A program made the translations under genes and the position numbers. Shown in pieces: positions 17,340 through 26,155 of a stretch of DNA of 64,000 bases. The stretch spans positions 197,812-261,811 of the forward strand of contig JANWLD010000001.1 in assembly GCA_025451045.1 (NCBI GenBank), given 5' to 3'. The first letter of the stretch is position 1; each line of letters starts with the position of its first letter. The notes below the pieces were generated by a model. That model worked only from the letters and a program-made list of their open reading frames with translations. It had not been told where the DNA came from and did no database searches. The stretch comes from Candidatus Saccharimonadales bacterium (lineage in GTDB: Bacteria; Patescibacteriota; Saccharimonadia; Saccharimonadales; 2-12-FULL-41-12).

Positions 17340-17772
17340 AGAATTAGAGCAAAAAATCGGCGAGTTGACCGAAGCTCTGCAGCGTGAGCGTGCCGATGCC
17401 ATCAATATTCGCCGTCGGCACGATGAACAGATAAATCATCTAAGAGATATAGTAAAATCCGGAGTTGTTAAAGACTTGCTGCCTGTAATAGACAACTTTG
17501 AGCGGGCACTTTCGCATGTACCAAAAGATTTGGAAAACAATGATTACGTAAAAGGTGTCCAGGTTATAGTCAAACAGTTTGAGAAAACTCTGGAAGGCAT
17601 AGGTGTTAAGAGGATAAAAACCGTTGGGGAAGTTTTCGACCCACATTTACACGAAGCTGTGAGCGTGGAAGGCGAAGGCGCAGAAGAAATTATCAGCGAA
17701 GAACTTCAAGCTGGCTACACCCTAGGCGACGAAGTTATCCGCCACGCCATCGTAAAAGTAAAGAGTAATTAG
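17317..17772 (+). CDS. grpE: nucleotide exchange factor GrpE
   Basis: GrpE-like coiled N-terminus and a C-terminal region containing VKRIKTVGEVFDPHLHEAV. ATG at 17317 with GGGAG 6 nt upstream (the ORF track starts at TTG 17314). Confidence 0.92.
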   Translation: MAKKPTVKELEQKIGELTEALQRERADAINIRRRHDEQINHLRDIVKSGVVKDLLPVIDNFERALSHVPKDLENNDYVKGVQVIVKQFEKTLEGIGVKRIKTVGEVFDPHLHEAVSVEGEGAEEIISEELQAGYTLGDEVIRHAIVKVKSN

Positions 17773-17782: not shown

Positions 17783-17950
17783 GGCGTGTCAAAATCCTAA
17801 GTATCTTTCATTGCCTGAACTTCTTCATCACGCCAGATTTACTTACTTTTTGCTCCAGTCCAGCTTACCGTATCTAAGGATACGATTCGCTCAGGGCTTC
17901 GCAAAGAAGCAAGTCCTCTGGCTATTCAAAAGCTCAATCAACGAAACATG

Positions 17951-18030: not shown

Positions 18031-19947
18031 ATGGGTAAAATAATTGGAATTGATTTAGGTACAACTAACAGCGCGATGGCTGTGATGCAGGGCGGTAAAC
18101 CTGATATTATCGCAAATTCTGAAGGAAATCGCACTACGCCAAGCGTCGTTGCTATCAACAAGAACGGCGAACGGCTGGTCGGACAAGTAGCTAACAGACA
18201 GCGGGTTACCAACGCTACCAATACTATTTTTGGCGTTAAACGGCTTATCGGCCGTAAATTTTCCGATAAAGAAGTCCAAAAAGACATCGAGCTGATGCCA
18301 TATAAAATTGTCAAAAGTGGTACAGGTGTCAAAGTCACTATGGGCGACAAAGACCAAAGCCCGGAAGAAGTTTCCGCGATGATATTGTCCAAGCTAAAAG
18401 CCGATGCCGAAGCCTTTCTTGGCGAACCGGTAACCGAGGCGGTAATAACTGTTCCGGCTTATTTTGATGATTCCCAGCGGCAAGCTACCAAAGACGCCGG
18501 AAAAATTGCAGGGCTTGAAGTAAAAAGAATTATCAACGAGCCAACCGCGGCTGCGCTGGCTTACGGGCTGGACAAGGGCAAAGAAGAAAAGATCGCAGTA
18601 TTTGACCTCGGTGGCGGTACGTTCGATGTTTCTATCCTGCAGCTTGGCGAAGGAGTATTTGAAGTACTTTCCACTAACGGTGATACGCACTTGGGGGGTG
18701 AGGACTTCGACCTCCGAATTGTTAACCACTTTGTCGATGAATTTAAAAAAGAATCCGGAATTGACGTTAAAGAAGACAAGGCTGCCATGCAGCGGCTTAA
18801 GGAAGAGGCTGAAAAGGCCAAGAAAGAGCTTTCTACTACTGAAGTGGCTGATATAAACCTGCCATTCCTAACGGCCAATGCAAACGGGCCAAAACACTTT
18901 GAATACAAGCTAACGCGTGCAAAACTGATGGATTTGGTCGGCGAGCTGATTGATAAGACAGCCGCTCCTTGTGAGAAGGCTATAAAGGACGCCAAGTTAA
19001 AAGCGTCTGACATTAATGAAGTTATCTTAGTTGGCGGTATGACTAGAATGCCAGCTGTTATAGATAAGGTTAAGAGTATTTTCGGTAAAGAGCCGAAGCA
19101 AGGCGTGAACCCGGACGAAGTTGTTGCTGTAGGCGCGGCTATTCAGGGCGGCGTGTTGCAGGGTGATGTAAAAGACGTACTGCTTTTGGACGTTACGCCA
19201 TTATCTCTGGGCATTGAAACGCTCGGCGGTGTTGCCACTAAGCTGATTGAACGAAACACTACCATCCCTACCAGCAAAAACGAAGTATTTTCGACCGCTG
19301 CCGACAACCAGCCGCAGGTTGAGATCCATGTCGTACAGGGCGAGCGCGAAATGGTTGCCGATAACAAATCCCTCGGACGATTCGTATTAGATGGAATTCC
19401 GCCATCACCGCGCGGTGTGCCGCAGATTGAAGTTACTTTTAACCTTGACGCTAATGGAATCTTGAATGTTACTGCCAAGGACAAAGGCTCCGGCAAAGAA
19501 CAAAGCATTACTATCTCCGGCAGCGGCAATCTGAACAAAGACGAAGTTGAAAAGGCTGCTAAAGAAGCAGAAGCCCATGCTGATGAAGATAAGAAGAAGC
19601 GGGAATCGGTAGAACTACGAAACCAGTTGGAGAACGCGGTTTATCAAGCCGAGAAACTGAAAACCGAGCAAAAGGACAAACTCGCTGATGAAGATATGAA
19701 AACTATTAATGAAGCAGTTGATGCGGCCAAAAAAGTACTGAAGGACGAAAAAGCTGACTTTACCGCGCTGGAAAACGCGGCCAAAGAACTTAACGAGAAA
19801 ATCATGCCTATCGGCGCGAAAATGTACGAAGATGCTAGTAAAGAGAGCGAAGCCTCAACGGAAACCGATAAAAAATCAGAAGACAAAAAAGACAAGGACG
19901 AGCCGGTAGAAGGCGAAGTCGTCGACGACAAGGATAAAGGAAAATAG
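18031..19947 (+). CDS. dnaK: molecular chaperone DnaK (Hsp70)
   Basis: [17 protein letters not shown] and [11 protein letters not shown] signatures; 638 aa. Confidence 0.98.
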
Positions 19948-24496: not shown

Positions 24497-24988
24497 TTAA
24501 ACCGCGATATTTTCACTACTGTCGTCGGTGCTGCCGGCGGGAGTACTGTCGTCGGGCGTTTCTGGAGCCGCTGGAGCCGCTTCAGGTGATTCAGTCGGAG
24601 TTTCTTCAGCAGGCGGGATTGCCGGAGTTGAGTCAGGAGCTGGCTGGTCACTGTTGCCATCGGTTGGGGGCGGGGAAGCTATGCCAGGTGAACTAACGCC
24701 GCCTAGACTATCTGACCCGGAATCGACAGATGGAGCCTCTGGAACGGCAGAAGATGTATCATCTTGGCCGAAACTCGATATGCCGCCAGAATTATCCGGT
24801 AGCGGCGCTTGGGCTATTTGGTCGGAAACAGGACTTACTGACTGATCAGGCTGGCTTAAGCCGACTGCGGCGCCTACCGTACCTGAAGGCGGCACTGTAG
24901 CTCCGGCAGGAGAACTAGTTCCAGGTGCATCTTCATCCGGGTTATCTTTTTTCTTTTTAAAAATACTAAAGATTTTGCTCAGAAACAT
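24497..24988 (-). CDS. acidic Pro/Ser/Asp-rich intrinsically disordered protein with N-terminal amphipathic helix
   Basis: MFLSKIFSIFKKKK followed by about 145 aa of P/S/D/A/G low complexity. AAGGA SD 6 nt upstream of the ATG. Confidence 0.6.
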   Translation of the reverse strand: MFLSKIFSIFKKKKDNPDEDAPGTSSPAGATVPPSGTVGAAVGLSQPDQSVSPVSDQIAQAPLPDNSGGISSFGQDDTSSAVPEAPSVDSGSDSLGGVSSPGIASPPPTDGNSDQPAPDSTPAIPPAEETPTESPEAAPAAPETPDDSTPAGSTDDSSENIAV

Positions 24989-25069
24989 ATTTTTCCTTAT
25001 TTTGAATTATATATACGATTTAGATTACTGCTTTTGCTTATATCTTGCAATGGTTTAAAGCCAGAGCGA

Positions 25070-25097
25070 TTGACTTTTAATTGAAAATACAGATAAT
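25070..25097 (+). promoter_or_regulatory. sigma70-type promoter driving the leader RNA plus tRNA-Lys
   Basis: TTGACT (25070-25075), 16-nt spacer, GATAAT (25092-25097). Confidence 0.55.
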
Positions 25098-25121
25098 GTA
25101 AGAAGTTAATTCGACTTCCAA

Positions 25122-25281
25122 ACACTTGCGCTTGAATGAAATGCAAGGCGTTGCCGAGGAACGCCCGGAGGTGTAGTACACTACACCGAGGACGTACCGC
25201 AGGCAAGCAACATAGCAGTTCGTCAAGAGTGTCAGCAGGGTTCAAGCTCTGCTTGAAGCAGTGATGACACGGCGCAAGAGT
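25122..25281 (+). ncRNA. candidate structured RNA (~160 nt), class unknown, co-transcribed 5' of tRNA-Lys(UUU)
   Basis: No ORF. A long-range closing helix pairs 25122-25131 with 25272-25281 (9 of 10 bp). Internal hairpins are GGTGTAG-taca-CTACACC (25170-25187) and TTCAAGC-tct-GCTTGAA (25241-25257), the latter nested inside GTGTCA/TGACAC (25229-25234 with 25265-25270). Confidence 0.3.
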
Positions 25282-25285
25282 TTGG

Positions 25286-25362
25286 GGGCCGTTAGCTCAG
25301 CTGGTTAGAGCACCTGCCTTTTAAGCAGGGTGTCCCGGGTTCGAGTCCCGGACGGCCCTCCA
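25286..25362 (+). tRNA. tRNA-Lys (TTT)
   Basis: Acceptor GGGCCGT/ACGGCCC, anticodon arm CCTGC-CTTTTAA-GCAGG, T arm CCGGG-TTCGAGT-CCCGG, encoded CCA; 77 nt. Confidence 0.95.
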
Positions 25363-25370
25363 AAATCATG

Positions 25371-25393
25371 ACCGCCTTCAAGGCGGTTTTGTT
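25371..25393 (+). terminator. intrinsic terminator after tRNA-Lys
   Basis: ACCGCCT-tca-AGGCGGT followed by TTTTGTT. Confidence 0.7.
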
Positions 25394-25423
25394 ATAATTC
25401 AAGAAGTTAGAGGAAATTATTAT

Positions 25424-26155
25424 ATGGCAGGACATAGCAAATGGGCAAAAATTCATCGAGGTAAAGCGATAGAAGATGCCAAACGGGGTGCTATCTTTAC
25501 TAAACTTGGCAATGCTATTGCTATCGCGGCGAAAAGCGGCGATGACCCGAATTTGAACTTTGGGCTTAGACTGGCAATTGATAAGGCCAAACAATCCAAT
25601 ATGCCGGCCAACAATATCCAGCGTGCTATAGATCGTGGCAGCGGTAAGCTGGGCGGTGAACAGATTCAAGAAGTGATGTACGAAGGTTATGGTCCCGGTG
25701 GTTCAGCTATTTTGGTCGAATGCGCTACGGACAATATAAACCGGACTTATCCGGCAGTACGCCTGGCTTTTACCAAGCATGGCGGCAATATGGCCGAGAA
25801 AGGCGCGGTTGCTTTCCAATTTACCCGTAAAGGCGTAATTATAATCAAAGGTACCGGAGAAGAGCAGCTACTTACCATTTTAGATGCTGGCGCCGAGGAT
25901 GCGATTGAAGACGACGGAGAAACAACTGTCTACACCGACCCTAAGCAACTATTTCAGGTGCGTGAGAATCTTAAGTCGGCCGGCTTGGAAATAACCGAAG
26001 CCGAACTATCCTATGAGTCTAACAGTTTGATAAAGATTGAGGACAAGGCCGTAGCCGGTAAAATAATGCGTCTCATGGAAGCACTTGACGAAATTGACGA
26101 AGTTACTAAAACACACACAAACTTCGATATTCCCGAGGAACTAATCGAACAATGA
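25424..26155 (+). CDS. yebC: YebC/PmpR family DNA-binding transcriptional regulator
   Basis: MAGHSKWAKIHRGKA N-terminus and conserved synteny with ruvCAB. Confidence 0.93.
   Translation: MAGHSKWAKIHRGKAIEDAKRGAIFTKLGNAIAIAAKSGDDPNLNFGLRLAIDKAKQSNMPANNIQRAIDRGSGKLGGEQIQEVMYEGYGPGGSAILVECATDNINRTYPAVRLAFTKHGGNMAEKGAVAFQFTRKGVIIIKGTGEEQLLTILDAGAEDAIEDDGETTVYTDPKQLFQVRENLKSAGLEITEAELSYESNSLIKIEDKAVAGKIMRLMEALDEIDEVTKTHTNFDIPEELIEQ

Follow-up and report, generated by a model that had tools for sequence, protein, structure and literature searches.

The window analysed here, a 64,000-nt stretch of a Candidatus Saccharimonadales bacterium genome (phylum Patescibacteriota; contig JANWLD010000001.1), carries a tRNA-Lys(UUU) gene that is separated from its promoter by a long structured leader. 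We found that positions 25116-25285 of this leader are one copy of a dispersed family of ~170-nt repeats that fold into a three-way junction. The family is new to Rfam and of a known kind, the small structured repeats of bacteria. Our interpretation is that the copy is probably an insertion of a selfish repeat from an ancient family, resembling the MITEs (miniature transposable elements with inverted repeats) and the Rickettsia palindromic elements. A preliminary description of the locus had suggested a small RNA with a gene of its own or a regulator devoted to tRNA-Lys maturation. Neither suggestion is supported. The source genome (833 kb, three contigs, 97.7% complete; G000 below) has 13 more copies, which lie within open reading frames (ORFs), next to rRNA genes and where genes start or stop, in either orientation. 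Among its congeners, two (G001 and G005) have an identical tRNA behind a ~8-nt leader and a third (G002) has a truncated copy.

The leader copy consists of the following parts:

25116-25285, forward strand: repeat element copy of 170 nt, the structured leader (covariance models; the minimum free energy (MFE) fold and the RNAalifold consensus agree)
25118-25132, forward strand: 5' strand of the closing helix P1, paired with 25271-25285 (three position-orthologous copies, aligned with MAFFT and folded with RNAalifold)
25136-25223, forward strand: arm 1, a long hairpin of irregular pairing in which two GA/GNA internal loops lie pseudo-symmetrically, with the apex GGTGTAG-TACA-CTACACC at 25170-25187
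25224-25228, forward strand: junction between the arms, the CAAGA of a conserved ..AAGAG.. motif
25229-25270, forward strand: arm 2, GTGTCA/TGACAC (25229-25234/25265-25270) around TTCAAGC-TCT-GCTTGAA (25241-25257)
25271-25285, forward strand: 3' strand of the closing helix, ending at tRNA position -1

The overall shape is a three-way junction formed by the closing helix, a long arm 1 and a short arm 2, with the inner hairpin of arm 2 flanked by conserved unpaired AGGG and GCAGUG. The leader is far more stable than shuffled sequence: 25104-25285 has an MFE of -74 kcal/mol compared to -51.6 +/- 4.2 for shuffled controls (z = -5.36), and none of 200 shuffles was as stable. The hairpins GGTGTAG-TACA-CTACACC and, nested in arm 2, TTCAAGC-TCT-GCTTGAA are as the preliminary description had them, and the GAGGA(A)CG motif that it saw repeated corresponds to the two GA/GNA internal loops of arm 1, which are conserved throughout the repeat family. 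The long-range closing helix that it drew does exist but is longer (25118-25132 with 25271-25285) and ends 0 nt, not 4 nt, before the tRNA.

The search for the family started from the pattern of the arm-1 apex, which was scanned over public collections and led to three further full or partial homologues (L085, L137 and L110). Each lies directly upstream of tRNA-Lys(UUU), and the tRNA sequences beside them differ; another locus, L161, is a repeat of G002. Two covariance models were used: R1, derived from the window copy, L085 and L137, all three linked to tRNA-Lys and aligned with MAFFT and RNAalifold, and R2, derived from 67 copies aligned to the model (alignment A3). Over model positions 1-170, R1 assigns 194.7 bits to the copy at 25116-25285 and R2 assigns 169.4 bits; this copy partly trained R1 and is among the 67 copies of R2. 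Full-length R1 matches (positions 1-170) were found in 78 of 151 sampled genomes of the order, a tally that includes one match in an unpublished genome (G062) on which nothing else here is based, and in 66 of 131 high-quality genomes; the highest copy numbers per genome were 18, 16, 14, 13 and 12. Within the bacterial family of the source genome, 19 of 30 genomes contain R1 matches, and the source genome has 6 copies according to R1 and 14 according to R2. Relatives in general have 0-18 copies per genome. When a phylum-wide sample was searched with R2, 13 of 151 genomes were positive, comprising the source genome, three of the six others from the order and nine from outside it, where a short form of ~125 nt without arm 2 is common. 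These order and phylum counts are based on samples of species-representative genomes, and absence applies to the genomes searched.

Copies of the element are highly diverged, with a median pairwise identity of 0.54 and a maximum of 0.90 (orthologues within one genus) among the 67. Because they are only ~54% identical, BLAST is blind to the family: applied to the leader, 60 relatives and the source genome itself yielded matches to the tRNA part only, plus a 25-nt match in rplP. The Rfam scan recommended in the preliminary description was likewise negative for the leader. At the gathering score, the 4227 models of Rfam 15 reported tRNA and rRNA only in the window and in 26 related loci holding >30 copies, and at E <= 10 the best sub-threshold matches to the leader (24900-25450 searched) were <=17.1 bits with E >= 1.5. 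This agrees with the preliminary description, in which the leader could not be matched by eye to the signal recognition particle (SRP) RNA, 6S RNA, RNase P RNA or tmRNA. In a literature search of limited coverage, we found no description of such elements in Saccharibacteria or Patescibacteria.

The preliminary description also called for an alignment of relatives and a covariation check, and these support the fold. In the alignment of three copies (MAFFT/RNAalifold), which was not fitted to a model, both partners show compensatory change in 15 of 62 pairs. Across the 67 copies, standard pairs occupy 91.2% of pair cells compared to 63.8% in column shuffles and 23-38% with slid partners, and both partners vary in 58 of 61 pairs; since A3 was fitted to the model, its counts of pairs, G-U pairs and double changes lean towards structure. 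None of 500 shuffles reached any of the observed measures. Both-side changes affect all 15 pairs of the closing helix (helix 1), and helices 9 and 11 of arm 2 covary at 9/9 and 7/7 pairs. Besides the unfitted three-sequence RNAalifold run, independent minimum-energy folds serve as a check, and by MFE alone 13 of the 14 copies in the source genome adopt the same topology. Individual bases are conserved as well: the GA loops of arm 1 and the G-U-A/U-A-C core of its apex are kept in 65-66 of 67 copies, and the junction consensus 'aAgAg' is conserved at >=60%, the two A's in capitals at >=90%.

Some weaker resemblances to the element were noted in the window and beyond. On the reverse strand of the window, R2 gave a weak short-form match (26.4 bits, arm 2 missing) at 17809-17945, in a ~260-nt gap between ORFs ending at 17772 and starting at 18031; it is possibly a decayed copy. 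The rplP match pairs 24 of 25 bases of arm 1 (25137-25161) with the L16 coding sequence of the source genome (G000:C1:493150-493174, L032:1501-1525; E ~3e-5). This stretch matches the rplP of its own genome better than the rplP of congeners, and the G002 leader has no match in its own rplP; about half of the matched positions are bases conserved in the repeat family, which partly explains the similarity. A ~180-nt palindromic repeat of Planctomycetota was tried as a family member and set aside, with membership not established at scores of only 18-30 bits (R1) and 13-24 bits (R2). It is a highly repeated imperfect palindrome in two metagenome-assembled genomes (MAGs) and related metagenome contigs (L112-L167), often at contig ends, and single loci of a similar repeat occur in a Bdellovibrionales MAG (L116:3593-3771) and a Clostridiales MAG (L140:4390-4507). 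The Planctomycetota apex, CCGGAGGTGTAG-N4-CTACAGTGAGG, is identical to that of the window element, and the two share the pattern CCGGAG.TGTAG....CTACA..GAGG. This likeness is circular because the sequences were picked by the apex pattern itself.

Copies of the repeat occupy a wide range of contexts, including the flanks of stable RNA genes. Copies abutting tRNA-Lys(UUU) were identified in the source genome, L137, L085 and G083, and tRNA-like matches adjoin copies in G018 and G015, judged by coordinates; an abutment of 0 nt, as in the window, was also seen in L137, L085 and L169. Other copies abut tRNA-Asp in G044 (3-nt gap), 5S rRNA in G156 and G126, and 23S rRNA in G161 and G070. In the source genome, one copy lies ~120 nt upstream of the 23S 5' end and an antisense copy lies right after the 23S 3' end, as is also the case in G126. 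The 23S gene of the source genome (G000:C3:2080-6053; L199, L202) is flanked by two inverted copies, both with their 3' ends facing the gene. The genes for tRNA-Ala and tRNA-Ile lie divergently upstream of this 23S gene, so the rRNA genes appear unlinked. The order in G126 is 23S, antisense copy, sense copy, 5S, antisense copy, with three copies around the 5S gene.

Protein-coding genes also contain the element. Eleven of the 67 copies are inserted in ORFs, in frame and with >=40 aa on each side, nine of them sense in one common frame and two antisense. The nine sense copies encode a homologous peptide (..LDGVQG..EQR.E.Y..Y.E..A....T.QSA.S..), and the standard frame is open in eight of them compared to 6 of the 58 other copies; in the 25116-25285 copy, this frame is interrupted by stop codons. 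In the source genome, a copy of 171 nt (57 aa) interrupts the Peptidase_M1_N domain of a 904-aa M1 aminopeptidase, and an antisense copy (174 nt inserted) interrupts the PF01035 domain of a 166-aa protein. The aminopeptidase insertion is missing in all five congeners, which have a 7-residue loop there instead, and the 174-nt insertion in the PF01035 gene is missing in all four congeners that have the gene. No Pfam family was found for the insert peptide, and a word-based search with the 57-aa peptide against longer proteins returned only the protein of the source genome itself.

Gene boundaries are a further common location. At least four sense copies in the source genome end 0-14 nt before a start codon or overlap it, and in one of them (C1:85913-86085) a TsaD-like ORF has its start and first codons in the closing helix. 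In the same genome, antisense copies touch or overlap the stop codon of the preceding gene. Among 75 copies, a set that still includes those in ORFs, the 3' end falls within -20 to +15 nt of a sense start codon in 20 (~6 being in-ORF artefacts) and within -9 to +6 nt of an antisense stop codon in 16. For the 5' end, the gap is -2 to 20 nt to a sense stop and mostly 16-26 nt to an antisense start.

Comparison of the tRNA-Lys locus among relatives revealed that the leader itself is variable. In G001 and G005, from the same genus, the promoter is the same, the tRNA is identical and the leader is only ~8 nt, with the tRNA following directly after the start-of-transcript block. G002 has a 112-nt homologue without arm 2 (54.8 bits with R1, 38.5 bits with R2); in G009 and G016, mainly a CCAAAC...GTTTGG closing helix remains; and other leader sequences occupy the locus in G003 and G004, in G011 and G024, and in G006 and G022. 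Such different leaders behind the same promoter indicate that the leader is not a conserved partner of tRNA-Lys. The locus reads as a decay series running from the full copy in the source genome to the truncated copy in G002, the remnants in G009 and G016, and no element in G001 and G005, and to judge from these sequences the element appears unnecessary for tRNA-Lys expression. Based on R1, zero copies were found in G005 (95% complete), in G004 and in all five genomes of genus g2.

Other arrangements at this locus deserve mention. The leaders of G024 (L020:1580-1750, reverse strand) and G011 (G011:C3:27834-27999) represent a different sequence of ~165 nt, found in two genera between the conserved promoter and tRNA-Lys(UUU). 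They are 71% identical and keep a hairpin through compensatory changes (GATACGA/TCGTATC versus GTTGTGA/TCACAAC). R2 does not recognise this type of leader, and a BLAST search against the bacterial family found it in G024 and G011 only, at the same locus. In the leaders of L045 (G006) and L046 (G022), the first 19 nt of the tRNA recur as a direct duplicate, along with part of its D-arm in inverted orientation and a duplicated ACCGGATT.. segment, and L039 (G010) has a disrupted tRNA-like copy upstream of tRNA-Lys(UUU). By eye, the locus looks prone to local duplication and inversion. On the other side of the gene, a stretch behind the terminator, ~40-120 nt after tRNA-Lys(UUU), is conserved in L006, L009, L018, L020, L021, L023 and L030 and is not present in the window. 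It resembles, again by eye, the variable and T-arm region of this very tRNA, followed by a hairpin (..gggtgtcg.gg..ga.a.tgcc.g.ggca.t.gcaagg..), and may be another RNA gene or a tRNA fragment.

In the window, the element is framed by the remaining parts of the tRNA unit:

25070-25097, forward strand: sigma-70-type promoter, -35 TTGACT at 25070-25075, 16-nt spacer, -10 GATAAT at 25092-25097 (consensus scan, 10/12 matches)
25098-25115, forward strand: start-of-transcript block gTAAGAAGTTAATT and short unstructured 5' leader, the block being conserved with the promoter across loci of the bacterial family
25286-25362, forward strand: tRNA-Lys(UUU), CCA end encoded (ARAGORN; Rfam RF00005, 71.3 bits)
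25370-25393, forward strand: terminator-like hairpin GACCGCC-TTC-AAGGCGGTT (25370-25388) and T-rich tail (consensus scan, 8 pairs, 5 G-C)

Promoter, long structured leader, tRNA and terminator are thus all in place for the single transcription unit of the preliminary description, which had named the same promoter (TTGACT-16-GATAAT) and a terminator after the tRNA. Taken by itself, the consensus scan is at chance level, with 2 promoter-like sites compared to 1.6 expected and 3 terminator-like sites compared to 1.3. Real support for the promoter comes from its conservation, because in 17 of 21 loci from the bacterial family the block TTGAC.. / ..ATAAT.TAAG.AGTTA.TT was recognised by eye ahead of tRNA-Lys(UUU); it is present too in L085 and L137 (metagenome/genome homologues). 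A hairpin and T-run follow the tRNA in most relatives, also by eye. Transcription would start near 25103-25105, giving 182 nt between start and tRNA and bearing out the earlier estimate of ~180 nt. The same description held the leader to be free of any ORF, which is not strictly so: an ATG-initiated ORF of 42 aa spans 25136-25264, with no Shine-Dalgarno sequence seen before its ATG.

How such a copy might persist can be outlined from its position. With the tRNA's own promoter before it and the tRNA behind it, the copy would become part of pre-tRNA-Lys on transcription and form its 5' leader. The leader would then fold on itself, with the closing helix ending at position -1, and the RNase P cut at the tRNA 5' end would remove it; it is reasonable to suppose that the leader is released by RNase P in this way, as a by-product of tRNA processing. 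Elsewhere, the element would likewise persist where it is harmless, whether in leaders and spacers that are trimmed off stable RNAs, in gaps between genes, to which its ends can contribute a stop codon or a Shine-Dalgarno sequence, or in surface loops of proteins when it lands in frame. We infer mobility and a selfish nature from the dispersal of the copies, their number (0-18 per genome) and patchy presence, the lineage-specific in-frame insertions in either orientation, the supply of ribosome-binding sites and stop codons, and the decay at the tRNA-Lys locus. An 11-nt direct repeat brackets one copy (L211:3212-3377 in G137), of the kind left by insertion at a staggered cut, and an 8-nt repeat flanks the copy at C3:36446-36615 in the source genome.

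Several observations weigh against a selfish repeat. Target-site duplications are undetectable in general, with flank repeats at about the level of the control and clearly significant at 1 of 67 copies. No mobilising gene was identified, in a search that covered only the reverse transcriptase domain PF00078. Reverse transcriptase itself was rejected as the mobilising enzyme, as PF00078 occurs in 5 of 30 genomes of the bacterial family compared to 19 of 30 for the element, with no correlation; the source genome has one such domain (51.2 bits) in a 473-aa open frame (C3:90777-91199; L239 = G000:C3:89277-92699). Among the 67 copies none are near-identical, the best within-genome pair having ~0.74 identity, and hence there is no sign of recent bursts. 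The 3' ends of sense copies lie 0-5 nt before tRNA-Lys, tRNA-Asp, 5S or 23S in 10 of 11 cases, which is tighter than chance would suggest, and the 3' closing strands of copies contain Shine-Dalgarno sequences (AGGAG or GAGG) or start codons; such tight abutment to functional starts could mean function. Conservation of unpaired loop and junction bases, namely the GA/GNA loops, AAGAG and the GCAG 3' of the arm-2 hairpin, extends to every context. Finally, helix changes between position-orthologous copies are mostly double rather than single: 19 versus 4 for a same-site insertion in an RluD-like gene of G137 and G083, 23 versus 4 for the copy after the 23S 3' end, 25 versus 2 for the copy before 23S, 17 versus 3 for the copy before 5S, and 11-13 versus 4-7 for the copy before tRNA-Lys. 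This pattern looks like long-term preservation of the fold at fixed loci, and not obviously like a decaying passenger; palindrome-correcting template switching could produce double changes without selection.

Much of this would be expected if the host used the element as an RNA module, a self-folding three-way junction that is bound by a protein or RNase and marks or insulates the 5' boundary of functional RNAs. Variants of this idea have it aid 5'-end maturation of tRNA, 5S and 23S, or gate translation starts by keeping the Shine-Dalgarno sequence or start codon within the closing helix. The sense copies placed 0-5 nt before stable RNAs (four tRNA-Lys(UUU) loci plus two tRNA-like ones, tRNA-Asp, two 5S and two 23S) fit this reading, as do the four or more start-codon copies of the source genome with AGGAG/GAGG in the 3' closing strand, the TsaD-like start within the helix at C1:85913-86085, and the conservation of the GA/GNA loops, AAGAG junction and GCAG in 67 copies whose fold is kept via double changes. 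An excess of G-U over A-C (106 to 39 in 48 well-paired columns) fits selection on one strand, in a test that is biased by the model's having picked the strand. Orientation speaks against it, however: antisense copies occur in transcribed spacers after 23S/5S and after stops within operons, and in-ORF copies occur both ways round. Moreover, copy number ranges from 0 to 18, with none in G005, G004 or genus g2 (0/5), and the tRNA-Lys leader copy is missing in G001 and G005 and decayed in G002, G009 and G016. We consider use by the host possible but unlikely. A similarly small chance attaches to the broader proposal of an order-wide, anciently conserved 5'-boundary RNA device in the ultra-reduced Saccharibacteria, or of a mobile element with structure-guided insertion at gene boundaries. 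Selection would keep the fold of such a device at fixed loci, its 3' end would lie at the first nucleotide of tRNAs, 5S and 23S and at start codons, and one protein or RNase would read the GA/GNA loops for end maturation or translation gating.

The remaining alternatives have less in their favour. An element acting at the level of DNA, either as a cruciform or hairpin site for a binding or recombination protein or as a palindrome maintained by template switching, with the RNA fold incidental, would account for copies in both orientations relative to host transcription and for double changes far exceeding single ones in the helices, the pattern that copying of one arm from the other would leave. 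The near parity of G-U and A-C when weakly paired columns are included (151 versus 126) points the same way. The conserved unpaired purine-rich GA/GNA loops are strand-specific and typical of RNA tertiary motifs, however, and G-U is 2.7-fold over A-C in well-paired columns, including those of the six antisense-transcribed copies (11 versus 2). We know of no partner protein for a DNA-level element and regard it as improbable. Even less credible is the proposal that the leader is a dedicated small RNA, released by RNase P, or a maturation regulator specific to tRNA-Lys. The locus does have a promoter and terminator of its own, its fold is very stable (z = -5.4), the closing helix stops precisely where RNase P would cut, and homologous leaders precede tRNA-Lys(UUU) in the distant relatives L085, L137 and G083, but the 13 further copies in unrelated contexts and the absence or decay of the leader in congeners with an identical tRNA are hard to reconcile with it. 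A riboswitch or other cis-regulatory 5' leader was rejected on the basis of incoherent placement (antisense, in ORFs, after stops, and beside tRNA and rRNA), and an RNase P RNA or tmRNA on the basis that the leader matches neither and both were found elsewhere in the source genome.

A divergent housekeeping RNA missed by the Rfam models, either SRP RNA or 6S RNA, has a negligible chance of being correct. Neither RNA was detected in the source genome, and arm 2 has a GAAGCAG-like motif that we take to be reminiscent of SRP RNA helix 8. Against this stand 14 copies per genome, some inside ORFs, a three-way junction instead of the 6S-like rod, and a region in which neither SRP nor 6S models gave a match at a threshold of E <= 10; copy number and context effectively refute both identities, and the absence of Ffh and FtsY was a further ground for rejecting them. 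The SRP seems to be missing from the source genome altogether. RF00169 and RF01854 (SRP RNA) as well as RF00013 found nothing there, and the genome has no Ffh M domain (PF02978) and a best PF00448 match of 21.3 bits, below the cut-off, in L071 (G000:C3:39007-42222). None of 101 sampled genomes from the order yielded PF02978, and in 0 of 41 relatives did RF00169 score above its cut-off. With no Ffh M domain and no clear SRP54-type GTPase in the genome, and PF02978 in 0 of 101 across the order, no SRP RNA is to be expected. A literature search of limited coverage returned no statement on SRP absence; in the excerpts available from a TM7x transcriptome paper, mentions of the SRP concern genes with host locus tags.

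A selfish repeat of MITE-like or Rickettsia-palindromic-element-like character therefore stands as our probable explanation, and it has consequences for how these genomes are viewed. Candidate Phyla Radiation genomes have a reputation for being streamlined, yet this 833-kb genome holds 14 copies of an old ~170-nt element, and relatives hold up to 18, with copies present even within conserved enzymes and right beside tRNA and rRNA genes. The family is notable for its strong covariation (58/61 pairs), its three-way junction with conserved loops, its age and its distribution, being widespread in one order and also found elsewhere in the phylum. It accounts for 'orphan' structured leaders, odd intergenic gaps and unexplained protein inserts of 57-58 aa in these organisms, and the covariance model lets annotators mask or label such stretches. 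It would also offer a second independent system, beside Rickettsia, for studying the entry of palindromic elements into coding genes and the reasons why such folds persist. Should the host prove to use the fold, the element would represent a new signal for RNA processing or translation control, in a lineage that is hard to study.

Among known systems, some structured RNAs are cut from tRNA precursors by RNase P or RNase Z, including the 3'ETS-leuZ small RNA of E. coli and the RNA of the MALAT1/mascRNA arrangement. The window leader resembles these in that a structured RNA and a tRNA share one transcript and a tRNA-processing enzyme would set one end. They are single-locus functional RNAs, unlike this leader, which is a repeat copy and dispensable in congeners. 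MITE-like repeats form a second point of comparison and include bcr1 of the Bacillus cereus group (~155 bp, two stem-loops), ERIC, BOX, the Neisseria Correia/nemis elements and REP2, as covered in the relevant passages of a review (PMC3184786). As characterised there, they share with our element a similar size, many copies, stable predicted RNA folds and transcription with neighbouring genes (which for the present element would follow from its position), and they supply ribosome-binding sites or gene 3' extensions, with some in-frame ORF fusions. The present element differs in that its termini pair without conserved sequence: the outer ~10 terminal positions have no conserved base across the 67 copies, no recognisable transposase terminal inverted repeats were seen and no parent element was found. 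Its target-site duplications are mostly undetectable, and its copies are far more diverged (median 54%) with base pairs kept.

The best match is provided by the Rickettsia palindromic elements, a likeness of behaviour and not of family membership. These elements, credited to Ogata et al. (2000) in two reviews (PMC10969869; PMC3184786), are ~150-bp repeats with a conserved encoded peptide that occur in frame in many unrelated genes, according to the passages devoted to them (PMC10969869). The review by Delihas, in its corresponding passages, describes in-frame fusions, gene 3' extensions and stable RNA folds for small bacterial repeats more generally (PMC3184786). Differences from the Rickettsia elements include the phylum, the three-way junction with conserved GA/GNA loops, the lower share of copies in ORFs (only ~1 in 6, or 11/67) and the pronounced tendency to lie at the 5' ends of genes for tRNA, 5S and 23S. 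In the features covered by those passages, both families appear as small dispersed palindromes (~105-150 bp in Rickettsia compared to ~170 here) of reduced, host-dependent genomes; both are old and diverged, with a transposase known for neither; and both combine many in-frame gene insertions that encode a conserved peptide with other copies in intergenic positions.

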